Virus genome (UHGV): UHGV-0188207
DNA from: a virus
Length of the DNA stretch: 27,934 bases
Strand: one strand, 5' to 3'
Of this stretch, positions 1-15,283 are shown in pieces. Under the pieces are notes generated by a model. The model saw only the letters and a program-made list of their open reading frames with translations. It was not told where the DNA came from and ran no database searches. Positions within the stretch are counted from its first letter, which is position 1, and each line of letters begins with the position of its first letter. A program made the translations under genes and the position numbers.

Positions 1-4
1 AAGG

Positions 5-495
5 ATGAATATGAAAAAAGCATTAATTACAGGTATTACAGGTCAAGATGGTTCCTACTTGGCTGAATTCCTTCTTGATAAAGGGTATGAAGTGCATGGC
101 ATTAAACGTCGAGCATCTTCATTTAATACAGAGCGTGTTGATCACATTTATCAAGATCGCCACAATCAAAATCCAAATTTCTTTCTTCATTACGGTGATT
201 TGACAGATACTTCAAACTTGGTTCGCCTCATTAAAGAAATCCAACCAGACGAAGTTTATAACCTTGGCGCTCAATCTCATGTAGCGGTTTCATTCGAATC
301 ACCTGAATACACTGCTGACGTGGATGCGATGGGGACTTTACGTCTGCTGGAAGCGATTCGTATTTGTGGGCTAGAGAAAAAAACACGTTTCTATCAGGCA
401 TCAACTTCTGAACTCTTCGGCTTAGTTCAGGAAATCCCGCAGCGAGAAACAACACCATTCTACCCTCGTTCGCCTTATGCTGTTGCGAAGATGTA
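5..495 (+). pseudogene. gmd: GDP-mannose 4,6-dehydratase, 5' portion (about 164 codons) truncated by IS3 insertion
   Basis: Translation [51 protein letters not shown]... matches the Gmd N-terminal Rossmann region (GxTGQDG motif); the reading frame runs into the IS3 terminal repeat at 496 and ends inside the IS. Confidence 0.8.
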
Positions 496-525
496 TGATC
501 CTACCCACGTAATATGGACACAGGC

Positions 526-1688: not shown

Positions 1689-1754
1689 GTGAGTCACCTC
1701 TGACTGAGAGTTTACTCACTTAGCCGCGTGTCCACTATTGCTGGGTAAGATCAC

Positions 1755-1790
1755 AAAAAAGCCCGCAGGGCTTGCGCCGTGCGGGCTCTT
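1755..1790 (-). terminator. Rho-independent terminator (GC hairpin plus T-tract on the minus strand)
   Basis: Minus strand reads AGAGCCCGCACGGCGCAAGCCCTGCGGGCTTTTTTG: stem CCCGCA/TGCGGG followed by T6; lies directly 3' of the ssrA-like fragment. Confidence 0.5.
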
Positions 1791-1833
1791 AGGACTTCAT
1801 CGGATGACTCTGGTAATCACCGATGGAGAATTT

Positions 1834-1878
1834 TGGTGGAGCTGGCGGGAGTTGAACCCGCGTCCGAAATTCCTACAT
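1834..1878 (-). other. ssrA: Attachment-site core: 45-nt copy of the 3' end of the tmRNA gene (ssrA), without the rest of the gene
   Basis: Minus strand reads ATGTAGGAATTTCGGACGCGGGTTCAACTCCCGCCAGCTCCACCA, which matches the tmRNA 3' acceptor/T-arm end as I recall it; sequence further 5' does not match tmRNA. Confidence 0.7.
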
Positions 1879-1963
1879 AGCATTTCAATGTCTGTAAAAA
1901 CAATGATTTGCTTTGATTTTCAGTTGGTTAGATTTATGCGGTGTCTGTCCGTTTTATGGGTTT

Positions 1964-2632
1964 TTAACTTTCTGCCGCCAAAGTGCCGCCACTGCATTTG
2001 TCGCCTAAACGCCTATTCGAAACGATTAATCTCTCGGCGATCTTAATCTTGGAGAGCTTATCTAGGCAGATAAAGCATATTGCTACTCCCGATACCACAA
2101 AATAGCTGCTTAAACCAAAGTATTGCCAAGTAGTTAGATGGTTTATCTTCTCCATCATCTTAGCACTTACTACAACAGAATAACTAAAAGGAAGTGCTAC
2201 GATGAGACTGCTCATGAAGTAAATTAGAGTTGTTATGAATTTTATTAATTTTCTATATATGCTGTATTTATATCTTTTTTTATTCCATGCGAATATTTCT
2301 TTATGGGTGGTAATGGAAATTAGACTTTGACATTTGGAATAATTATCTATATCGCTAACGGGGTTTGTTGTGTTGAGTAATATTAATCTTTGTTTTTTTG
2401 TCAATGTGTTATCTTTGGTTAATGCAGCAATGCCGTAATCTTCCGCCAGTTTTTTGAAGGTCGGATCTTCACTGCTTTTATACATCTGATATGAAAATTC
2501 GCTAATGTTTTTACGTGATGTGAATAGTTTATCTTTTTTATAAGTCCACCCTGTTTTAAGCCCTAATAAGGATATAATGGCAGATAGGGAAGGGAATAAT
2601 ATTTTTATAAGTAACTCTAGTTCGCTATTCAT
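1964..2632 (-). CDS. Hypothetical membrane protein (about 3 predicted TM segments), AT-rich cargo gene between integrase and att
   Basis: 222-aa ORF; start ATG 10 bp after the int stop with a GAGGT RBS; hydrophobic stretches LIKILFPSLSAIISLLGL, LIKFITTLIYFMSSLIVALPF, YFGLSSYFVVSGVAICFICL; the 3' end runs into GC-richer att-flanking DNA, so the true stop is uncertain. Confidence 0.5.
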   Translation of the reverse strand: MNSELELLIKILFPSLSAIISLLGLKTGWTYKKDKLFTSRKNISEFSYQMYKSSEDPTFKKLAEDYGIAALTKDNTLTKKQRLILLNTTNPVSDIDNYSKCQSLISITTHKEIFAWNKKRYKYSIYRKLIKFITTLIYFMSSLIVALPFSYSVVVSAKMMEKINHLTTWQYFGLSSYFVVSGVAICFICLDKLSKIKIAERLIVSNRRLGDKCSGGTLAAES

Positions 2633-2642
2633 AAATTACTAC

Positions 2643-3659
2643 TTACCTCAAATTAAATAAAGGATTTTTAGTTACGGCATCTTCTAAATGGTCTGGGGCG
2701 AAGTGTGCATAGACCATGGTCATTTTTATATCTGAATGTCCTAGGATATCCCGCAAAACCAATATGTTTCCACCATTCATCATAAAATGGCTAGCGAATG
2801 TATGACGCAGAACGTGAGTACATTGACCCTCTGGCAGATCGATACCAGCCCGCTTTACTGCACGCTCAAAGGCTTTTCTGCATGGGGTGAATAACTTCCC
2901 CCTATTCTTAGGCAGTTCTTCATATAAATCCTTAGAAATAGGCACAGTTCGGTTTTTCTTGCCTTTGGTCTTGGTATAAGTGATACGGTATTTTGATACC
3001 TGATGACTCTGCAGGTTTTCGGCTTCGCTCCAGCGTGCGCCGGTGGCCAGGCATATTTTTGCAATCAAAAGCAGGCTGGAGCTTTGAGAATCGGCGCAGG
3101 CATCCAGCAGACGTTTAATTTCTTCCGGGGTCAGGAACGCCAATTCACTCTCAGCAATTTTAAATGTTGGCAGCCCAGCAAGCGGGTTGGGGGCTGACCA
3201 GTGGCCCAGCTTTTTCAGTGTACCAAAAACAGATGATAGATTGCGCTGTTCAAGGTTTACCGTGCGGGGCTTAACGGGCGACATAAACGTGCCATCTTCA
3301 TTTCGTACTTCACCTTTTAACCGTGCTTCGCGGTATTTCGTAAAGTCACCGGCTGTCAGTTCTGAGGCGATGGGGTCGCCTAGACCATTACAGATAATTC
3401 TAAGTTTCGCCATGAGGCGCTTGGGGTCTGCGAGTGTCTGACCATACAGGGAATACCAAAGCTCAATTAATTCTGATAGGTGTCGCCGATCATCCTTTTC
3501 TCCTAACCACGGTTTTTTGTTCACTTCTTCCATTGTGAAGCTTTCAAATGCAATGGCTTCGCCTTTGGTAGCAAATTGCTTACGCACGCGCTTACCATTG
3601 CGTCCATTGGGATAGCACTCACACAACCATTTTCCGTTCGGCTGTTTTCTGATGGTCAT
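2643..3659 (-). CDS. int: Tyrosine integrase, P2/186 family
   Basis: 338-aa ORF with C-terminal catalytic region HVLRHTFASHFMMNGGNILVLRDILGHSDIKMTMVYAHFAPDHL (R..H..R..Y tyrosine recombinase signature); adjacent to the att core. Confidence 0.9.
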   Translation of the reverse strand: MTIRKQPNGKWLCECYPNGRNGKRVRKQFATKGEAIAFESFTMEEVNKKPWLGEKDDRRHLSELIELWYSLYGQTLADPKRLMAKLRIICNGLGDPIASELTAGDFTKYREARLKGEVRNEDGTFMSPVKPRTVNLEQRNLSSVFGTLKKLGHWSAPNPLAGLPTFKIAESELAFLTPEEIKRLLDACADSQSSSLLLIAKICLATGARWSEAENLQSHQVSKYRITYTKTKGKKNRTVPISKDLYEELPKNRGKLFTPCRKAFERAVKRAGIDLPEGQCTHVLRHTFASHFMMNGGNILVLRDILGHSDIKMTMVYAHFAPDHLEDAVTKNPLFNLR

Positions 3660-3662
3660 AAG

Positions 3663-4295
3663 TTAGAGGTTCTTGATTACTTTGACTGCACGTCCTACGA
3701 CTTCCACATCATCTACAGAACATTCAAATGAAGTGTCATCTTGGCTAACTACTATTTTGTTTCCGGGTATGCGCGCAATTTTGACGATGCTTTTAACTCC
3801 GTCCATATCGACTAACCAGAAGCCATTACTGACTTGTTTAACGGACGTATCCACTACAAAGCTATTATTAGCTGTTTTAACAAATAAAGCGTTGGATGAG
3901 TCACCATCGAGCAGGCTGCTATCAAGAAGAATTTCATCACTTGCCTGCAGTTCGCCGTTCTTCAGTTCAACACGTTTGATGCTAGGAGCAACGATCTTAG
4001 AAAGTGGTCTTACAGTGACGGGAGGTTCATTTTTGAGATTTGTTTCTTCGTTCTCACACGCATACATATCTCCTTGACCAGTAGCCAGCCATAGAAGGGA
4101 AGCTCCTGTTTCAAGGGCACATTGAATTACCCATTCGGCAGGAAAGCTATCCCTTAAGTATCTGTTAGCCATAGTGCTTTTGGATACTTCCAGATGTTCG
4201 CAGAGCTGCTGTCGTGAGCTGAAGTTGTAAGCCTTAATAAGCCTGTTAATTGCATCGCGCCCACCACTATCATTTCCCGCTTTGATTAAACTCAT
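3663..4295 (-). CDS. cI: Immunity repressor CI (186-like CI with HTH N-domain)
   Basis: ORF MSLIKAGNDSGGRDAINRLIKAYNFSSRQQLCEHLEVSKSTMANRYLRD...; 3-bp gap to int; divergent from the early lytic operon; start set at the ATG with a GAGG RBS. Confidence 0.7.
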   Translation of the reverse strand: MSLIKAGNDSGGRDAINRLIKAYNFSSRQQLCEHLEVSKSTMANRYLRDSFPAEWVIQCALETGASLLWLATGQGDMYACENEETNLKNEPPVTVRPLSKIVAPSIKRVELKNGELQASDEILLDSSLLDGDSSNALFVKTANNSFVVDTSVKQVSNGFWLVDMDGVKSIVKIARIPGNKIVVSQDDTSFECSVDDVEVVGRAVKVIKNL

Positions 4296-4306
4296 AATCA
4301 AACCTC

Positions 4307-4335
4307 TTGACGTATATAAAAAGTGATCTTAATAT
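4307..4335 (+). promoter_or_regulatory. Candidate early lytic promoter (pR-like): TTGACG-17 bp-TAATAT
   Basis: -35 TTGACG at 4307-4312 and -10 TAATAT at 4330-4335, upstream of the Apl-like gene and overlapping the cI translation start; AAACC-rich repeats follow at 4360-4405. Confidence 0.45.
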
Positions 4336-4411
4336 CCATTCATGGTTTGAAAAGCAAAACCAAACCACATAAAACAAGATAAAACGAAACCAAACTAAGA
4401 GATACTGCACT

Positions 4412-4654
4412 ATGAGTACTGATATTTCAATTCGAGTACCAAAAGAGATGGCAACGCCTGCTGAGTTCGCTGAATGGGAAGGTATCTCCCGCGGCTCTGT
4501 GTATCAAAAAATTCACCATGGTCAGCTTGCTAAATACATGGTCAAGAAGGAAAAAAACAAAGGCCGCGTAAGCCTGCGTTATTTAATGTACAAAACCGAT
4601 CAGGTCCGTGAATCCCTCGGTCATTCCAACTTCCGCGTCATTGTTGGTAAGTAA
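4412..4654 (+). CDS. Apl/Cox-like excisionase/transcriptional regulator (first gene of the early lytic operon)
   Basis: 80-aa ORF divergent from cI with HTH-like segment EWEGISRGSVYQKIHHGQL; position equivalent to 186 apl / P2 cox. Confidence 0.55.
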   Translation: MSTDISIRVPKEMATPAEFAEWEGISRGSVYQKIHHGQLAKYMVKKEKNKGRVSLRYLMYKTDQVRESLGHSNFRVIVGK

Positions 4655-4686
4655 GTTCAATTATGAGAACTTTCTAAGGGGGTAGC

Positions 4687-5196
4687 ATGTTTGATTATAA
4701 GATTTCCAAACACCCGCATTTTGATGAAGCCTGTAGAGCTTTTGCACTTCGTCACAATATGGCGAAGCTGGCAGAACGTGCAGGAATGAATGTCCAGACA
4801 CTGCGAAACAAACTCAACCCAGATCAACCGCATCAGCTCAATGCGCCAGAAATCTGGCTGCTTACCGATCTGACTGAAGATTCAACGCTGATAGATGGTT
4901 TTCTGGCACAGATTCACTGCCTACCATGTGTACCGATTAATGAGGTGGCAAAAGAGAAGCTGCCGCATTACGTCATGAGTGCAACTGCAGAGATAGGGCG
5001 TGTCGCGGCAGGTGCGGTTTCTGGCGATGTAAAAACCAGTGCAGGCCGTCGTGATGCGATCAGCAGCATTAACTCTGTTACACGACTGATGGCGCTGGCT
5101 GCTGTTTCATTGCAGGCCCGTTTACAGGCTAATCCTGCGATGGCGAGTGCGGTTGATACCGTGACTGGCCTCGGTGCTTCATTCGGTTTGCTGTGA
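4687..5196 (+). CDS. cII: CII-like regulatory protein (186 CII family)
   Basis: 169-aa ORF (the size I recall for 186 CII) directly after the apl-like gene; N-terminal HTH-like region. Confidence 0.6.
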   Translation: MFDYKISKHPHFDEACRAFALRHNMAKLAERAGMNVQTLRNKLNPDQPHQLNAPEIWLLTDLTEDSTLIDGFLAQIHCLPCVPINEVAKEKLPHYVMSATAEIGRVAAGAVSGDVKTSAGRRDAISSINSVTRLMALAAVSLQARLQANPAMASAVDTVTGLGASFGLL

Positions 5197-6786: not shown

Positions 6787-7640
6787 GCACCATCCTGAAA
6801 TGGGCGGGAAATAAAACCGCCATTATGTCCGAACTGAAAAAACACCTTCCTGCTGGCCCGCGACTGGTTGAACCTTTCGCGGGTTCCTGTGCTGTGATGA
6901 TGGAGACGGATTACCCCAGCTATCTGGTTGCGGATATTAATCCTGATTTAATCAACCTCTATAAAAAGGTTGCCGCTGATTGTGAATCGTTTATATCTCG
7001 CGCCAGAGTTTTATTTGAGATCGCAAACAGGGAGGTGGCTTATTACAACATAAGGCAGGAGTTTAATTACTCCACTGAAATTACTGATTTCATGAAAGCG
7101 GTATATTTCCTGTATCTCAATCGTCATGGTTACCGTGGATTATGTCGCTATAACAAGAGCGGGCATTTCAACATTCCGTACGGTAATTATAAAAATCCGT
7201 ATTTCCCTGAAAAGGAAATTCGCGCATTTGCAGAGAAAGCCCAGCGTGCAACGTTTATCTGCGCAAGCTTTGATGAAACGCTGGCGATGCTGCAGGTGGG
7301 GGATGTGGTGTATTGCGATCCGCCGTATGACGGTACGTTTTCCGGCTATCACACTGATGGTTTCACTGAAGATGACCAGTATCACCTGGCATCCGTTCTT
7401 GAACATCGGTCATCAGAAGGACATCCGGTCATTGTTTCTAACAGTGATACATCCCTGATCCGTTCGCTGTATCGCAATTTTACTCACCACTACATCAAGG
7501 CAAAACGCAGCATCGGTGTAGCAGCTGGTGAGAGTAAATCTGCAACAGAAATCATCGCTGTTTCCGGGCCGCGCTGCTGGGTGGGATTTGATCCTTCGCG
7601 TGGCGTGGATAGTTCTGCCGTGTACGGAGTGCGTGCATGA
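6783..7640 (+). CDS. dam: DNA adenine methyltransferase (Dam-like, D12 class)
   Basis: [18 protein letters not shown]...FAGSCAV...[11 protein letters not shown] (DPPY catalytic motif and FxGxG AdoMet motif); ATGA-coupled to flanking genes. Confidence 0.8.
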
Positions 7641-10051
7641 GCCATGCTGATATGAACAACTGCAGCGGCTTTAACGAGGTCGCCGCAGCATTCTCATGGA
7701 ACAGCCCGAAAAAGGCCATTAACCCTTATCTGGACCCGGCGGAAGTTGCGCCGGTTTCTGCGCTTTCAAACCTGATCACTCTGTACGCTACTGATAACGA
7801 GCAGGAACAACTGCGCCGCGAGGCACTGAGTGATCAGGTCTGGGAGCGTTATTTCTTTAATGAATCCCGTGATCCTGTCCAACGCGAAATGGAGCAGGAT
7901 AAGCTCATTAGCCGGGCAAAGATGGCGCATGAGCAGCAGCGTTTTAATCCGGACATGGTCATTCTGGCCGACGTCAACGCCCAGCCTTCCCATATCAGCA
8001 AGCCGCTGATGCAACGTATTGAATATTTCAGCAGCCTGGGCAGGCCAAAGGCTTATTCCCGCTATTTGCGTGAGACGATTAAGCCATGTCTGGAACGACT
8101 GGAGCATGTACGCGACAGCCAGCTATCTGCATCTTTTCGTTTTATGGCAAGCCATGAAGGGCTGGATGGTCTGCTGATCCTGCCTGAAATGAGTCAGGAT
8201 CAGGTGAAACGCCTGTCTACCCTTGTCGCTGCGCATATGAGCATGTGTCTTGATGCCGCTTGTGGTGATTTGTACGCCTCCGATGATGTTAAGCCAGAAG
8301 AAATCCGCAAGACATGGGAAAAGGTGGCTGCAGAAACCCTGCGACTGGATGTCATACCGCCTGCGTTTGAGCAACTCCGCCGGAAAAGAAACCGCCGCAA
8401 ACCTGTGCCCTATGAACTCATTCCGGGTTCGCTGGCGCGTATGCTGTGCGCCGACTGGTGGTATCGGAAATTATGGAAGATGCGTTGCGAATGGCGGGAA
8501 GAGCAGTTGCGTGCTGTCTGCCTGGTCAGCAAAAAAGCATCTCCCTATGTCAGCTATGAAGCCGTGATGCATAAACGTGAGCAGCGCCGTAAGTCGCTGG
8601 AGTTTTTCCGTTCTCATGAACTGGTGAACGAAGACGGCGACACGCTGAACATGGAGGATGTGGTAAACGCCAGCAGCAGCAACCCGGCGCATCGCCGCAA
8701 TGAGATGATGGCCTGTGTTAAAGGCCTGGAGCTTATCGCGGAAATGCGTGGTGACTGCGCCGTTTTCTACACCATCACCTGTCCGTCACGTTTCCATTCC
8801 ACGCTAAATAACGGCAGGCCAAACCCGACCTGGACCAACGCGACAGTAAGACAAAGCAGCGATTATCTGGTCGGCATGTTTGCTGCATTTCGTAAGGCTA
8901 TGCACAAAGCCGGGTTGCGCTGGTATGGCGTGCGGGTGGCTGAGCCGCATCATGACGGCACAGTTCACTGGCACCTGTTGTGTTTCATGCGTAAAAAAGA
9001 CCGCCGCGCCATTACTGCATTGTTGCGTAAGTTTGCCATCCGTGAAGACCGCGAGGAGCTGGGCAATAACACGGGGCCACGCTTTAAGTCTGAGCTGATA
9101 AACCCGCGCAAAGGAACGCCGACAAGCTACATTGCGAAATATATCAGTAAGAATATTGACGGGCGTGGTCTGGCTGGCGAGATCAGTAAGGAAACGGGTA
9201 AATCCCTGCGTGATAACGCTGAATACGTTAATGCCTGGGCGTCTCTGCATCGTGTTCAGCAATTCCGCTTCTTTGGCATTCCGGGGCGTCAGGCTTACCG
9301 TGAACTGCGATTGCTGGCTGGTCAGGCGGCAAGGCAACAGGGTGACAAAAAAGCAGGTGCGCCGGTACTGGATAACCCGCGCCTTGATGCCATCCTGGCT
9401 GCTGCTGATGCTGGTTGTTTTGCCACCTACATCATGAAGCAGGGCGGCGTACTGGTTCCCCGCAAATATCACCTCATCAGAACCGCTTATGAAATCAACG
9501 AAGAGCCAACCGCCTATGGCGATCACGGTATTCGTATTTATGGCATCTGGTCACCCATTGCAGAGGGCAAGATCTGCACTCATGCAGTGAAGTGGAAAAT
9601 GGTTCGTAAGGCCGTTGACGTTCAGGAGGCGGCAGCCGACCAGGGCGCTTGCGCCCCTTGGACTCGTGGCAATAACTGTCCCCTTGCTGAAAATTTGAAC
9701 CAACAGGAGAAAGATAAATCAGCTGATGGGGACCCCAGAACGGACATTACCCGCATGGATGACAAGGTGTTGCACGATTACCTGCACAGTATGAACAAAA
9801 AGGAGCGCCGGGAATTGGCTGCAAGGTTACGTCTGGTGAAACCGAAACGGCGTAGAGACTACAAACAGCGAATTACAGACCATCAACGACAGCAGCTCGT
9901 CTATGAACTGAAATCCAGAGGATTTGATGGCAGCGAGAAAGAGGTCGATTTACTCCTTCGCGGCGGCAGTATTCCGTCAGGAGCAGGCCTGCGTATCTTC
10001 TATCGGAACCAGCGTTTGCAGGAAGATGATAAGTGGCGGAACCTGTATTAA
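7637..10051 (+). CDS. A: Replication initiation endonuclease gpA (rolling-circle HUH nuclease)
   Basis: 804-aa ORF with the HUH motif [11 protein letters not shown] and the size/position typical of P2/186 gene A. Confidence 0.85.
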
Positions 10052-10164: not shown

Positions 10165-10205
10165 CTTATACATACAGTATTGCGTGTGGTGTCATAGGAG
10201 GAAAG

Positions 10206-10394
10206 ATGCAGGACTATTTTTTGGAGTCTTTGAAGCTCCAGCGCATTGATTTTTTTCTTAAGCTTGTAGCGGCTAGTGAGTGCGATGATGAAGAGAAGCG
10301 GCTTGCTATCCAGTGGGTTTCGGAGCTGACCGATGAGTTAATGGCGAAAATCCGTACTCATGAGTACAACCGTTCAATGGATCTCCCCGGTTAG
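10206..10394 (+). CDS. Small hypothetical protein downstream of the LexA box (candidate SOS-induced factor, Tum-like antirepressor position)
   Basis: 62-aa ORF with a strong AGGAGG RBS; the assignment is by position only. Confidence 0.4.
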   Translation: MQDYFLESLKLQRIDFFLKLVAASECDDEEKRLAIQWVSELTDELMAKIRTHEYNRSMDLPG

Positions 10395-10979
10395 GCTTAG
10401 GAACGTTGCTGGCGTTAGGACTTGATTCTGACGCTAGCAAGGTTGATCAACGAGCCATGCGAGGCGTTAGTCATGGGCAAAAAAATAGTAACTTCCAGAT
10501 TTTGCTTCGTGCCAGGTATTGAGTAGTTTTATCGCCAGAGGGGCTGTTAGCGCTCAAACTACTAATGGAGCCACACCTTAGATGAGTGATTTGGCTTAAG
10601 CTATGATTATATAGTTTCGCTGTACGGCGGCCTTGCTTTTTATTGAAGCGACCAGACTGGAACAACGGCGAAAGGAGACTAACGATACGCACCAGTTTTT
10701 TGAAAAGGTACAGTTATCTAGATTGGTTGCCAATTTTCGTTGAAACCTGACATACCATTAGGTCATTGCTTTAGAAAAATTAATACTTGATGTGAGAATT
10801 GCTTCAAAACATCTAGAATTAAAGTTTCTTTACTAGTATGCTTCATCACTTGGTCGTTGGGTTGAGTGCAAAAGCTAAGGCTGATGCCCAGTACGCTATC
10901 CGCATTATTGCCAGAGAACCGATTCGAAACCGGAATCTGGCAGAGCATGGGCGCAAGTGCTGGCTTCCCAACGGCCTCG

Positions 10980-11948
10980 TTATTTATAATATGCTGACTT
11001 CAAAACCACTCGTCTTTCAACCTGCTGTGATAGCATTACAGCGTTAGTCCAATCTTTTGGATACCTTATTTCTTCTATAACACGAATATAAGCACATACT
11101 TTATTTTTTCCCTCTCCTTTGGCATAAGTAACCTCTAGATTATTAAATTTCAATAAGTGCTCTCTTCTTTGGTAAGTAAAACAGCCGTAATCACGGACAT
11201 CAGAAGAAGTAATAGCATGAGTTGAAGGAAACCGAACTAGTAAATTTCTCAAGTAGGGAATAATGTCCAAACTCGTTGCTTTGTTTTCTTCTCTGCGACT
11301 CTTTCTGAACATATGTCTCCAACCCAGCCGTGTAAGCTCGATTTTCCCAAGCACCGGAGATGTGATTTCTTTCTGTTCAGAATAACGTTTTTTAACAAAC
11401 GCTCGCCGATTATTAAGTAGTGAGTTTCTTCTTCTTACATGGATTCCTTTTGCTCCAGTTTCACCTGCACGTACCATGGACATACAGCGAGCCAGGTCAA
11501 ACCGTGTGGCCGGAGTGATTAAGTGATATTCTCCATAAGTTTGGTTTTTAAGGGTAGTGTTTGGATGTATATAGGCCCAAAATGCTTTACGATTAGTTCT
11601 GTCAACCCAAACGACACATATATGGTGAGTTGTCCTTTTGGCTGCTTTTTTTGCGGCCGAATTTAATACAAAACCTTTCTCTAATAAATGACCATAAGTT
11701 GCCCCTGATTTAACTTGCGACAATATAAGCATTCTTTCTTTTGATGCCCATGGATGTTCGAAGGATAATATTAAATCTATTTTTGAATTGTCGTCTTCCC
11801 TGGAACCCCAGTGCCCCTCTCCTCTACAAGCAAGAATGAATTGACTCATTGCATAAGATTCGGCGTCACTGCCGTTAACTGAGTTAAACTGTCTTGTTTC
11901 TAGCACAGTTGGTATTGGTCGTGATGCAAGTAAACTGAAAGATCCCAC
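10980..11948 (-). CDS. Hypothetical protein in the AT-rich accessory region (candidate defence/cargo gene)
   Basis: 322-aa ORF with a GTG start and GGAGA RBS; low GC compared with the phage core; possible nuclease-like D...QxK pattern (KIDLILSFEH...LSQVKSG), which is very weak evidence. Confidence 0.55.
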   Translation of the reverse strand: MGSFSLLASRPIPTVLETRQFNSVNGSDAESYAMSQFILACRGEGHWGSREDDNSKIDLILSFEHPWASKERMLILSQVKSGATYGHLLEKGFVLNSAAKKAAKRTTHHICVVWVDRTNRKAFWAYIHPNTTLKNQTYGEYHLITPATRFDLARCMSMVRAGETGAKGIHVRRRNSLLNNRRAFVKKRYSEQKEITSPVLGKIELTRLGWRHMFRKSRREENKATSLDIIPYLRNLLVRFPSTHAITSSDVRDYGCFTYQRREHLLKFNNLEVTYAKGEGKNKVCAYIRVIEEIRYPKDWTNAVMLSQQVERRVVLKSAYYK

Positions 11949-12021
11949 TTATAGTTCTCTCCAAAAAATTGCATAATCTTGAACGCTAAAAAATAGTATA
12001 CAAACTAAAGTATTTTTTCAT

Positions 12022-12240
12022 TTAATTCAATGTATTGGCTAAAATTAAGACATTTATAGCTATATGTACTAGATAACATAGCGTTGTTTTCCTTTTGAAA
12101 TCTCTTCTTGTGGTAACACAACAGTATTTACTCAAGTAGTTTGTCACTGCATGGGGAGATTTTGCTATGTCCGCGGCATCATACAGATGCGATAGATTTT
12201 CAGCATGACCTTGGGTAGCAAATCTGTAGGTATCATCCAT
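12022..12240 (-). CDS. Possible small ORF upstream of the 322-aa gene (uncertain)
   Basis: 72-aa ORF on the same strand 73 bp upstream of the 322-aa gene; marginal RBS spacing. Confidence 0.25.
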   Translation of the reverse strand: MDDTYRFATQGHAENLSHLYDAADIAKSPHAVTNYLSKYCCVTTRRDFKRKTTLCYLVHIAINVLILANTLN

Positions 12241-12385
12241 TGCACCTCAAAGTAACTCTGGTGCATACCTATGCTGCATGAAAATGAATGATCGCTAGTG
12301 GATCGTTTATGTCGAAGCCTGCCAGTTCTGACGGGCTTTTGCTTATGTTATGCAACTGCATGAAAACCACTACACAAAGCGGGCA

Positions 12386-12404
12386 GGCGTGGCGGGGATA
12401 CGAG
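12386..12404. other. Candidate cos (cohesive end) core GGCGTGGCGGGGATACGAG
   Basis: First 13 nt GGCGTGGCGGGGA match the 186/P2 cos 19-mer as I recall it (GGCG[T/A]GGCGGGGAAAGCA[T/C]); the 3' six positions diverge. Confidence 0.4.
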
Positions 12405-12556
12405 CGCGCGCTAAGTCATATAAGAGTTATATATTGATTTGATTGCTGGACATGCATACAGTATCGCTCTATCATCTAATAAATCTTAGAGTATTTGACA
12501 ATGTTTGGATAAAATGGAACCTAACTTATTCATAATCCGCTAAACAGGGATGTCAG

Positions 12557-13471
12557 ATGCCATACCAATTGGTAGAGCTTAGCCCCGTAGCTAACGATCT
12601 TGAACAGTTAGGAACCAAAGAGAAGTTTTGGTTCTATTTCTCCGATGACACTGTAAATTTGCAGTTGTTTAAGTACTCTAGGCCAGGTACTGGCGAGCAT
12701 TGGTCTGAAAAGTGTGCTGCTGAGTTATGTCATTTGCTTAACATTCCACATGCTAGCTATGATTTGGCGCGATACAATGGTCGATTCGGTGTGGTGACTC
12801 AGAATATCATTCCATCTGGTTTCCGGATGGTAATGGGAAATGAAGTGCTTCACAGTTCGACATTCGATTATCCTGGGCCTTTACAAGCCGGGGAAAAGCC
12901 GGTAAGGGTCAGAGAACACACTGTCACAAGGGTATTGGGTTGTTTGGATAGGGAATCTATCAAGCCTCCTCCGAGTGTATATGATCTAACCGGGCTAAAT
13001 GCAGCAGATGTATTTTGTGGATATTTGATGCTCGATGCACTTGTGAGTAATCAAGATCGCCATCATGAAAATTGGGCGATCATGCTTAACAATGAAACTG
13101 GTGAGCAGTTTTTGTGTCCAACATACGATCATGCCGCTAGTTTAGGAAGGGAGATGTTAGATGATGAGCGTAACGAACGGCTTAATACTAAAGATAAAAA
13201 TCGACAAATCCCATGTTTTGTAAGAAAAGCTCGCTCTGAGCTATTCAAAGCAAAAACTGATAAAAAGCCCTTGCTGACCGTTGAAGCATTTCAACATGCA
13301 GTTGAAGGGAGAGTTGCCGCTCGCGACCATTGGTTAGGTAAGTTGAGCGTTTTAACAGAAGATTCCATTACAGATGTGTTTAACCAAGTGCCTTCATCGT
13401 GTATATCCGACAGTGCACGTAGATTTGCAACGTTAATGGTAATGGAAAATCGCAGAAGGTTACTAGAATGA
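12557..13471 (+). CDS. HipA-family (HipT-like) Ser/Thr kinase core lacking the HipA N-terminal subdomain
   Basis: 304-aa ORF with LGTKEKF (cf. HipA GAQEK loop), DALVSNQDRHHENW (catalytic loop, cf. HipA GATDGHAKNF) and CPTYDHAAS (cf. HipA PFYDIIS); AGGGA RBS; motif comparison from memory only. Confidence 0.6.
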   Translation: MPYQLVELSPVANDLEQLGTKEKFWFYFSDDTVNLQLFKYSRPGTGEHWSEKCAAELCHLLNIPHASYDLARYNGRFGVVTQNIIPSGFRMVMGNEVLHSSTFDYPGPLQAGEKPVRVREHTVTRVLGCLDRESIKPPPSVYDLTGLNAADVFCGYLMLDALVSNQDRHHENWAIMLNNETGEQFLCPTYDHAASLGREMLDDERNERLNTKDKNRQIPCFVRKARSELFKAKTDKKPLLTVEAFQHAVEGRVAARDHWLGKLSVLTEDSITDVFNQVPSSCISDSARRFATLMVMENRRRLLE

Positions 13472-14208
13472 CTAATACAAACTCCGTTTACGTCGCATGG
13501 CAGGCACCAGATACCAGAGACTGGCATGTTGTTGGTAACTTGCAAGAGCGCAAATCGGGGTATGTTTTCAGGTATACCAAAGGTGCTCTTAAATCTACTA
13601 AATTTACAAAGTTTAGCGGCATGAGTGATGTTCGTGAAACTTATGTTTCGGAAGAATTGTTTCCTCTTTTTAAAAATCGCCTTTTATCACCGAGACGTCC
13701 AGAGTATCCGAGTTTCATTAAATGGCTTGGATTTGAAGAAGATAAGGTAAATCCTATCGATATTCTTGCTCGCTCGGGAGGCTTACGAAGCACTGATCAG
13801 CTGCAGATTTTCAAAAAAATTGATGTTGATTCTGATGGTAACTTTGAGCATTTTTTCTTCTTACATGGACTTGGTTACTTAAATAGCTTAGCTAATGCTC
13901 GTGTATCTGAATTGAAACCGGGGCAAATTTTGCGTCTTTGCTTGGATCTTCAAAATGAATACGATGGGGATGCTGTTGTCGTTCGTGCAGATAAACCAGC
14001 TGAAATCGTTGGTTACTGCCCTAGGTATTTAAGTAATGATATCAAGAAGATGTTATTGGATGATCCAAAATCAATCACTTTAACGGTCGAAAAGATTAGC
14101 GATGATGCTCCTCATAACTATCGGTTATTATGTAAATTATCAGGAGTACTAAGCCAAGCCTGTCAATCGACGCTGATTCCTCAGGATGAGTTTGAACCTA
14201 TTGAGTAA
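13468..14208 (+). CDS. Protein with C-terminal HIRAN-like domain and an N-terminal region resembling the HipA N-subdomain (HipS-like)
   Basis: 246-aa ORF, ATGA overlap with the kinase gene; C-terminal DGDAVVVRADKPAEIVGYCPRYLSNDIKKML resembles the HIRAN signature; N-terminal FPLFKNRLLSPRRP / NPIDILARSGGLRSTD resemble HipA FNFFDNLLPDSP / FDLLSEIGRDSVG. Confidence 0.5.
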   Translation: MTNTNSVYVAWQAPDTRDWHVVGNLQERKSGYVFRYTKGALKSTKFTKFSGMSDVRETYVSEELFPLFKNRLLSPRRPEYPSFIKWLGFEEDKVNPIDILARSGGLRSTDQLQIFKKIDVDSDGNFEHFFFLHGLGYLNSLANARVSELKPGQILRLCLDLQNEYDGDAVVVRADKPAEIVGYCPRYLSNDIKKMLLDDPKSITLTVEKISDDAPHNYRLLCKLSGVLSQACQSTLIPQDEFEPIE

Positions 14209-14211
14209 ATG

Positions 14212-14242
14212 AAGAAAAGCCACCAAACGGTGGCTTTTCTTA
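14212..14242. terminator. Bidirectional hairpin terminator between the convergent HIRAN-protein gene and the portal gene
   Basis: AAAAGCCACC-aaac-GGTGGCTTTT stem-loop flanked by T-rich sequence on both strands. Confidence 0.5.
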
Positions 14243-15283
14243 TTATGGGACTATATCTAGCGAGTAGGTATTAAACTGTATCGCCTCCTTGCCAAGCCAA
14301 TCATTCATCTCCTGTAATCGCTTTTGTAGTGGCATTAGCTCATTTCGGACGAATACACGGCTTGCCTTTTCCACATCCCCAAACCCCCCAACATTATTCG
14401 GCATAATCCCCATCATTTGCGGCGGCACGCGGTGCGCTGCCATCATGTCATCCCGACTCACGTTCTTGATGTTAAGAAATTCATCCTTCGCCGCGACTTC
14501 TGACAATGGGATGATCTGAAGCCCGTCTTTTTTGCCGTTAGGTGAGTACATAAACAGGTTGCGGAAGTTGCCTGGACCTTTGGCGCTTTTCATCGCGTTG
14601 CGGAGGTTGTTCACATCCTCCTGATTCTGCGCGGCATCGGTCATGTACATGATGAAGCCTGCATGGCTGCCGTTGATGTAATACTTACGGCGGAACAACG
14701 TGGCGGACTCGTTGAGCAGGGCTGACGGAATGGCAGAAAGATAACCGGGCAGGCCGTAGATCTCTTGGTTAATATCCGGTTCCATCAGATGAAAGATGCT
14801 GCCTTTCGTGAACTGATACGGCTGCGTAGTCATGCCGTATTGCACAAACCAGTAGGTATCCAGGTCTAACCCGCGTCGGGTGTATTTTGCCAGCGCAGGT
14901 TCAAGGGCGATAACTTCACCGAAGCGGTTCGTGCGTTTCTCCAGGTAGGCGTTACCAAATACCAGATAGTCCTGCACAAAACGTGAAAAAGCCTGCTGGC
15001 TGAGCAGCGGGTGAGGGATATAGGTGCTGGTCAGAATGTTGCACTTTACTGCAATCGGTGAGCTGTGGTGTACGGCGGCGCGGAATGTTCGCGCCAGGCC
15101 GTCGAAACTCACAGGCGGCTCATACCAGCGGTCCATCTGTACGCATTCCACATAGTCCAGCAGTTCGCGACGGTCCAGAACAGGAACGGGATCGCCGAAG
15201 CTGAATGCTTCGGCTGAAGTCTGGCTTTTATGCTGGATCTGATTCATCGCCGCTGCGCGGTTTTTCTTACTCTTTCCCATCAA
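14243..15283 (-). CDS. Q: Portal protein gpQ
   Basis: 346-aa ORF; size, position (divergent from the O-N-M-L operon, next to terminase) and sequence family typical of P2 Q. Confidence 0.85.
   Translation of the reverse strand: MMGKSKKNRAAAMNQIQHKSQTSAEAFSFGDPVPVLDRRELLDYVECVQMDRWYEPPVSFDGLARTFRAAVHHSSPIAVKCNILTSTYIPHPLLSQQAFSRFVQDYLVFGNAYLEKRTNRFGEVIALEPALAKYTRRGLDLDTYWFVQYGMTTQPYQFTKGSIFHLMEPDINQEIYGLPGYLSAIPSALLNESATLFRRKYYINGSHAGFIMYMTDAAQNQEDVNNLRNAMKSAKGPGNFRNLFMYSPNGKKDGLQIIPLSEVAAKDEFLNIKNVSRDDMMAAHRVPPQMMGIMPNNVGGFGDVEKASRVFVRNELMPLQKRLQEMNDWLGKEAIQFNTYSLDIVP

Follow-up and report, generated by a model that had tools for sequence, protein, structure and literature searches.

Organisation of the int-att region

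The window, which is the whole 27,934-nucleotide stretch of the virus genome UHGV-0188207 that was analysed, contains the int end of a prophage of the P2/186/Fels-2 type (Peduoviridae) that has ssrA as its integration site. cI is the first gene of the leftward lysogenic operon; int and a further ORF, referred to here as the cargo ORF, follow it on the same strand (Table 1). Rightward beyond cI lie apl/cox-like, cII, fil, DUF5347, DUF2732, traR-like, dam and gpA genes. An earlier note on this DNA had reported a 222-aa ORF between int and the ssrA att core with a gap of 10 bp to the int stop codon; the coordinates are confirmed, and the positions of the two codons give the same gap.

Table 1. 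Features of the int-att region in the window
Feature	Position	Strand	Remarks
Host ssrA intrinsic terminator	1754..1773	-	Stem 1773-1759, followed by T-tract
att core	1834..1880	-	Displaced copy of the ssrA (tmRNA) 3' end, ~45 nt; prophage/host junction
Phage-side attP arm	1881..1972		Conserved; between cargo gene and att core
Cargo ORF	1964..2632	-	222 aa; ATG start, TAA stop
Tandem repeats GTGGCGGCA (1992-1984) and TGGCGGCA (1980-1973)	1973..1992	-	Conserved phage backbone
Non-homologous insert (cassette)	1993..2642		~650 bp
ATG of cargo ORF	2630-2632	-	
Stop codon of int	2643-2645	-	
Tyrosine integrase, int	2643..3659	-	338 aa; Int_N and Phage_integrase domains
186-type CI immunity repressor, cI	3663..4301	-	Phage_CI_repr and Phage_CI_C domains

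The cargo ORF ends 83 bp from the ssrA 3' fragment. Within this fragment, the 40 nt at 1834-1873 (minus strand) match what we take to be the 3' end of E. coli ssrA; the chance expectation for such a match is 0. Rfam returns a partial tmRNA match at 1834-1923 (E = 4e-10), which, with just the 3' end present, does not reach the gathering score. ARAGORN finds no complete tmRNA or tRNA, as expected for a displaced partial copy. The tandem repeats GTGGCGGCA and TGGCGGCA are probably the Int arm-type sites of attP. Relatives with integrases 69-72% identical have another tandem repeat, TCCAYATTKTGWCCAC-like, in the same place; on this comparison, the arm-type repeats appear to co-vary with the integrase.

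The ORF differs from its surroundings in base composition, and the very low GC content described in the earlier note is borne out: 34.2% in the ORF compared to 46.4% in int, 42.7% in cI and 50.2% in the window as a whole. Within the ORF, the sliding-window GC falls to 0.30-0.31. With GC at 34% in the ORF versus 46% in int and 50% in the window, the composition is unlike that of the phage backbone.

The cargo ORF is a real gene under purifying selection and not a chance ORF. The dN/dS ratio is 0.12 against a homologue that is 84% identical and 0.085 against one that is 75% identical; other pairs within the family give values of 0.07-0.10. A putative ribosome binding site, GAGG, is located 13 nt from the ATG, a spacing judged longer than optimal. 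RefSeq E. coli genomes contain a near-identical ORF (99.7% DNA identity), annotated as the hypothetical protein WP_001083625.1; a literature search for this accession gives no match.

The gene is probably transcribed together with cI and int. A scan of the minus strand from 1700 to 4700 finds no promoter-like site. Nor is any terminator predicted between int and the ORF; going downstream from the ORF, the first one predicted on the minus strand is that of host ssrA. In phage 186, leftward transcription has been measured by an int::lacZ fusion (PMC7708051). A layout with a 10-bp gap, no recognisable promoter of its own and no intervening terminator fits co-transcription with cI-int, as do the unrelated cargo genes that repeatedly abut the int stop in related loci; the protein would consequently be made in the lysogen.

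The int-att interval as a variable cargo site

According to the earlier note, the gene is cargo inserted between int and the attachment site. This agrees with what is found in other prophages, since the same interval is empty in close relatives and occupied by unrelated low-GC genes in others. The comparison with prophages that lack the gene, which the earlier note had proposed as a check, also bears this out: homology in the flanks ends at the int stop codon on one side and at the attP arm on the other. Homology with RE-2010 (a Salmonella phage), Cartapus (an Escherichia phage) and L004 (an E. coli prophage carrying a paralogue, P0008) halts at the int stop; it restarts at the attP-arm repeats and continues to the att core. 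The conserved arm itself is common to RE-2010, Cartapus and L004-type prophages. The left edge of the cassette is thus the stop codon of int, and its limits run from the first base past this stop to the last base ahead of the conserved attP-arm repeats. The repeats supply the final 9 codons of the ORF (SGGTLAAES, then the stop codon), and most family members stop about 14 residues before the end of the window ORF; the C-terminal tail is therefore explained as a by-product of the junction.

Empty slots are seen in several relatives. In Xenorhabdus beddingii, whose integrase is 92% identical, the arm repeats begin 4 nt past the int stop, which means that the slot is empty. Among 80 genomes with related integrases, six ssrA-type relatives have an empty slot with approximately 130-160 bp from the int stop to the core match. 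In 20 of the 80, an unrelated ORF on the same strand (at least 150 aa, GC content 0.27-0.43) starts between -16 and +18 nt of the int stop.

Several of the alternative occupants can be identified. Occupants match the PADLOC models PDC-S49 (1e-119), Old (4e-27; an OLD-like ATPase) and Aga_Nuclease (3e-63). Another occupant gives a weak match to TIR-type effector models (2e-7 in PADLOC; 8e-6 in Pfam). One has a Pfam FRG domain, which is not counted here as a defence feature, and the Cartapus occupant is described as a RES protein by its depositors. Judging by these matches, the identifiable occupants are mostly known or candidate defence genes. The cargo ORF itself is, on the sequence comparison, a swappable single-gene module in the int-att slot.

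The slot itself is not new. The int-att interval has already been named as a minor defence hotspot of P2-like phages, with 3% of P2 systems (PMC13586616, NAR 2026); by that account, placement of a defence gene here is atypical but plausible. The present locus resembles that hotspot in its variable occupancy and in the recognised defence genes among the alternative occupants. However, the published count is of recognised defence systems, and the cargo gene is not recognised by PADLOC v2 models. In the same study, six of eight randomly chosen uncharacterised loci from P4 hotspots protected against phages, and 15-32% of uncharacterised P2 proteins scored as antiviral.

What the locus adds is a view, at base-pair resolution, of how the P2-like int-att slot is loaded. 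Cassettes fuse to the int stop; the int 3' end and the attP arm are the two places between which they recombine, which would put the cargo under the lysogenic promoter. On the IMG/VR contig L122 (4640-5000), a relic int 3' end (translation ...EDAVTKNPLTNL) is located directly upstream of a family homologue, and both stand behind a different, 328-aa membrane-like cargo gene. The relic points to recombination within the int 3' end as the way in which cassettes are stacked or exchanged.

Between gpA (7637-10051) and the portal gene (14243-15283; on the minus strand) lies the main P2 hotspot of the same prophage, a low-GC island (about 40% GC) at 10200-14400. It contains the PADLOC candidates PDC-M03A (12557-13471, HipA_C-like) and PDC-M03B (13468-14208, with a HIRAN domain), as well as a 322-aa ORF (10980-11948, minus strand) with no family match.

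Distribution of the gene and its homologues

A related int is present in 222 of 5,426 complete E. coli genomes. The cargo gene is found in 29 of these 222 genomes, an RE-2010-type gene in 11 and the P0008 paralogue in two. The set with an int of at least 95% identity coincides with the 29 genomes carrying the ORF, and in every one of them the ORF is full length, aligns in one piece and is annotated as a CDS. The earlier note had named absence or disruption of the ORF in otherwise identical prophages, with no difference in phenotype, as one observation that would refute its proposal; in complete E. coli genomes, none of the 29 copies of this int allele is accompanied by a missing or disrupted ORF. 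With all 29 copies intact, this test points toward function. Truncated variants do occur in the 90% cluster, with an 82-aa form on 13 contigs and a 173-aa form on four.

Homologues that are 47-67% identical occupy the same slot in Siccibacter, in Cronobacter and in the prophages that encode the E. coli/Salmonella protein P0008. On IMG/VR contigs, a family member is located directly behind int in 19 of 23 cases.

Homologues are also found outside this setting. Klebsiella quasipneumoniae and K. variicola have a stand-alone chromosomal homologue on at least 1000 contigs, with a monooxygenase gene on one side and a LysR regulator on the other; LysR genes also adjoin more distant homologues. Several homologues are found amid metabolic genes beside LysR, outside mobile elements or defence islands. 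Such a neighbourhood is as compatible with a role in housekeeping or stress as with defence.

The stand-alone chromosomal homologues indicate that one gene appears to be sufficient. A two-gene system was considered, based on a 306-aa gene that precedes the distant homologue P0094 and on further genes that separate int from the homologue in L115 and L122; it was not adopted, as most loci are single-gene and a partner is thus not required. The 306-aa protein has no Pfam match and is encoded 40 bp upstream of P0094 on three metagenome contigs (L094, L096 and L097, at approximately 311-1231). It could be a partner in the P0094 branch.

Database matches

The cargo protein is a member of phrog_21256 (PHROGs v4; E = 3.2e-154, 512 bits), with residues 1-222 aligned to positions 1-222 of the 222-position profile. 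This family has itself no function or category, so that membership means that the protein has been seen before in (pro)phage genomes and nothing more.

Pfam and NCBIfam scans of the cargo protein give no match. The sole match in PADLOC v2.0.0 is to Cas2_II (E = 0.0063, 14.6 bits), which is taken as chance. Pfam scans of 34 relatives at E ≤ 0.1 return scattered chance matches only. In Pfam, NCBIfam and PADLOC v2, there is consequently no similarity to a known defence, exclusion, holin or immunity family. Sequence and fold searches of the PDB return nothing specific. WP_001083625 and two further related accessions do not occur in the DefensePredictor supplements examined.

A tblastn search of 50,697 GenBank phage records gives no match; no sequenced isolated phage in that set therefore carries the cargo gene. 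The nearest phages, RE-2010, Cartapus, Fels-2 and Kp4865-2, match in the flanks and nowhere else.

The family is larger than a fast search suggests. A word-indexed search retrieves 22 clusters, and all named ones are from Enterobacteriaceae. An exhaustive profile search retrieves 76 clusters at the 50% identity level, mostly of about 200-230 aa; many match over nearly the full length and have the architecture in common. The named members of this wider set are from Enterobacterales, Orbaceae, Rahnella and Burkholderia, and all are annotated as hypothetical.

Predicted protein architecture

The product is predicted to be an inner-membrane protein with three helices, N-out/C-in. Kyte-Doolittle analysis (19-residue window) gives hydrophobic segments at approximately 5-27, 128-157 and 170-196; together with the helices of an AlphaFold model, these support the approximately three transmembrane (TM) segments proposed in the earlier note. 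The model, built from a 34-sequence alignment, has a pLDDT of 92.3 and a pTM of 0.80.

In the model, a long helix (2-54) comprises TM1 and a cytoplasmic extension. It is followed by helices at 57-72, 79-86 and 91-100, a beta-hairpin at 105-116, a helix at 124-154 that comprises TM2, a short helix at 157-164 and a helix at 168-214 that comprises TM3 and its extension. The predicted topology is accordingly TM1 (~5-27), a cytoplasmic alpha/beta domain (~28-127), TM2 (~128-154), a short periplasmic loop, TM3 (~168-192) and a basic C-terminal tail. The net charge is -1 at the N-terminus, +9 in the ~100-aa domain, where two juxtamembrane clusters have +4 and +5, and +3 in the C-terminal tail; this distribution fits the positive-inside rule and an N-out/C-in orientation.

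Only A70, L77, R82, W116, Y138, P148 and A199 are conserved at 90% or more across the family, and the whole-family alignment contains no conserved polar residue of a catalytic type. The sequence thus suggests no activity, and a binding or sensing role is favoured for the cytoplasmic domain. The order of secondary structure elements in this domain is winged-helix-like. DNA binding by such a fold was considered and not adopted; the PadR-type fold matches are weak and the would-be recognition helix is acidic.

Possible function

The gene may encode a lysogen-expressed membrane protein that excludes other phages; we consider this reading to stand at roughly even chances. It is an extrapolation from the slot, by context and by the membrane location of the product; on the same grounds, the suggestion of lysogenic conversion or superinfection exclusion in the earlier note is plausible. 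Several points weigh against phage exclusion: no match to a known defence or exclusion family in the searches above, no conserved catalytic-type residue, homologues beside metabolic genes, a putative ribosome binding site at more than the optimal spacing, and the small shares cited above of P2 systems in int-att (3%) and of P2 proteins scored as antiviral (15-32%). Under this model, a cargo module would have recombined into the int-att slot of a 186/Fels-2-type prophage at ssrA. There it would be the last gene of a leftward lysogenic operon (pL/pE, cI, int, cargo) that ends at the ssrA terminator. The product would insert in the inner membrane, with its conserved cytoplasmic alpha/beta domain clamped between the extensions of TM1 and TM3. 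At the inner membrane, this domain would recognise some component of the phage or the host, and the block would be executed by the helix bundle, which would serve as anchor or effector. Infection may be stopped as the genome enters (superinfection exclusion) or through permeabilisation of the membrane (abortive infection); the evidence is consistent with either, and does not separate an entry block from abortive infection by membrane collapse.

A broader form of the proposal is more tentative and somewhat less probable. Here the protein would be the founding member of a new single-gene membrane defence family, with a fold that has no close PDB relative; phage would be detected at the inner membrane, and the family would be spread by P2-like prophages and by chromosomal copies in Klebsiella and other Proteobacteria.

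The main alternative, which we regard as unlikely, is a host-physiology protein acting in lysogenic conversion, such as a stress, envelope or transport modulator that raises the fitness of the lysogen whether or not phages or toxins are involved. Copies stably kept in the chromosomes of K. quasipneumoniae and K. variicola, between metabolic genes and LysR, are in line with such a role, as is the strong purifying selection on the family. However, no transporter, enzyme or signalling domain is found, and the slot turns over fast among unrelated genes, which is typical of conflict genes. The GC content of the Klebsiella copy (45%) is also low compared to that of Klebsiella genomes (~57%) and suggests an acquired gene. 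Somewhat less probable still is that the protein is an orphan which gives immunity to, or protects from, a toxin acting on membranes (a pore-forming colicin or bacteriocin, for example, or a CDI/T6SS ionophore); the host would then gain resistance from the prophage to competitor bacteria rather than to phages. The immunity proteins of pore-forming colicins are likewise small inner-membrane proteins, have three or four helices and occur as orphans; members of the present family also stand alone in chromosomes with no partner. One of the 34 members examined gives a faint Pfam match to Colicin-K immunity (PF17500, E = 0.024), but this match is not significant, is confined to that one member and is not seen for the window protein. 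No toxin gene is located beside any locus examined, and colicin immunity proteins are not known to have a conserved ~100-aa cytoplasmic domain. A further point against this reading is that those other occupants of the slot that can be identified are known or candidate anti-phage genes.

An accessory role in the life cycle of the phage, through modulation of FtsH/RseP-dependent CII turnover, integration or lysis timing, is improbable. The ORF is placed in the cI-int operon, and its three helices in N-out/C-in orientation have the topology of class I holins; it lies outside the lysis cassette, however, and is approximately twice the size of a class I holin. Homologues also exist outside phages. 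Close relatives with the same cI/int/cII module have either an empty slot or unrelated genes, so the cargo is not part of the core circuitry. The CII protein of 186 is degraded by the membrane proteases FtsH and RseP (PMC7708051), which is a further point in favour of this role. A decaying or non-functional hitch-hiking ORF has the lowest probability of all and would be quite surprising. The low GC content, the hypothetical annotation, the 14 C-terminal residues read through into the backbone and the few truncated variants in the 90% cluster would all fit decay. Against this stand the dN/dS values (0.07-0.12), the intact copies in each of the 29 complete genomes, an architecture conserved across many of the 76 clusters and a confident fold prediction.

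If the protein excludes phages, it would be a compact defence module (~210 aa) that consists of one gene, is embedded in the membrane and has no recognisable enzymatic domain, a class overlooked by homology-based defence finders; in that case, entry block and membrane collapse could easily be dissected in E. coli. If there is no phage phenotype, the gene would be one more conserved prophage accessory gene, and the kept Klebsiella copies would point to physiology.

Comparison with known exclusion and membrane proteins

The P2 genes old, tin and fun(Z) are AT-rich and non-essential; they are expressed from the prophage and exclude lambda, T-even phages and T5. They differ from the cargo gene in location (gpA-gpQ and within the tail genes), and their products are soluble and have no sequence similarity to the cargo protein. 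The gpA-gpQ hotspot of the present prophage likewise carries candidate defence cargo, PDC-M03A/B.

P22 SieA, T4 Imm and HK97 gp15 are small inner-membrane proteins, several of them prophage-made, that act at genome entry. The cargo protein is similar in its predicted location and its probable expression context: three helices are predicted with a positive-inside bias, and expression in the lysogen is deduced from the operon layout only. It differs in that it has no Pfam match and consists of three helices plus a cytoplasmic domain of 100 aa.

Class I holins are proteins of about 100 aa that are encoded in the lysis cassette beside an endolysin and have three helices, N-out/C-in. Like S105-type holins and lambda RexB, a membrane effector of abortive infection, the cargo protein is predicted to form a helical bundle in the inner membrane; its three helices in N-out/C-in orientation have the topology of class I holins. 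In contrast to class I holins, the cargo protein has 222 aa, with a cytoplasmic domain of 100 aa, and is encoded in the lysogenic operon behind int; it shows no homology to holins or RexB. RexB needs the sensor RexA, whereas the cargo gene is single.

The defence protein SNIPE, a nuclease bound to the membrane, is constitutively located there, at the place where phage genomes enter, and cleaves phage DNA during injection (PMC13190303). It offers a conceptual model for a membrane-tethered cytoplasmic domain. SNIPE, however, has a nuclease domain, while the cargo protein has no nuclease or other catalytic signature.

Other features of the ssrA site

The start of the window (1-497) contains the first 166 codons of gmd, a gene of the O-antigen cluster, and is 100% identical to many E. 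coli genomes. An IS3 element (496-1753) interrupts gmd, and the far end of the element abuts the T-tract of the ssrA terminator. None of the complete E. coli genomes contains this gmd'::IS3::ssrA-terminator junction; gmd looks to have been inactivated by a rearrangement or deletion that IS3 mediated.

In several E. coli loci (L001, 4636-5877; L004-L007, ~6980-8260), a second integrase island, of the P4/CP4-57 type, is found after the displaced ssrA 3' copy that adjoins this prophage, which indicates tandem occupation of the ssrA site. This second island carries defence-like cargo of its own, with AIPR, NACHT or ParB-like genes.
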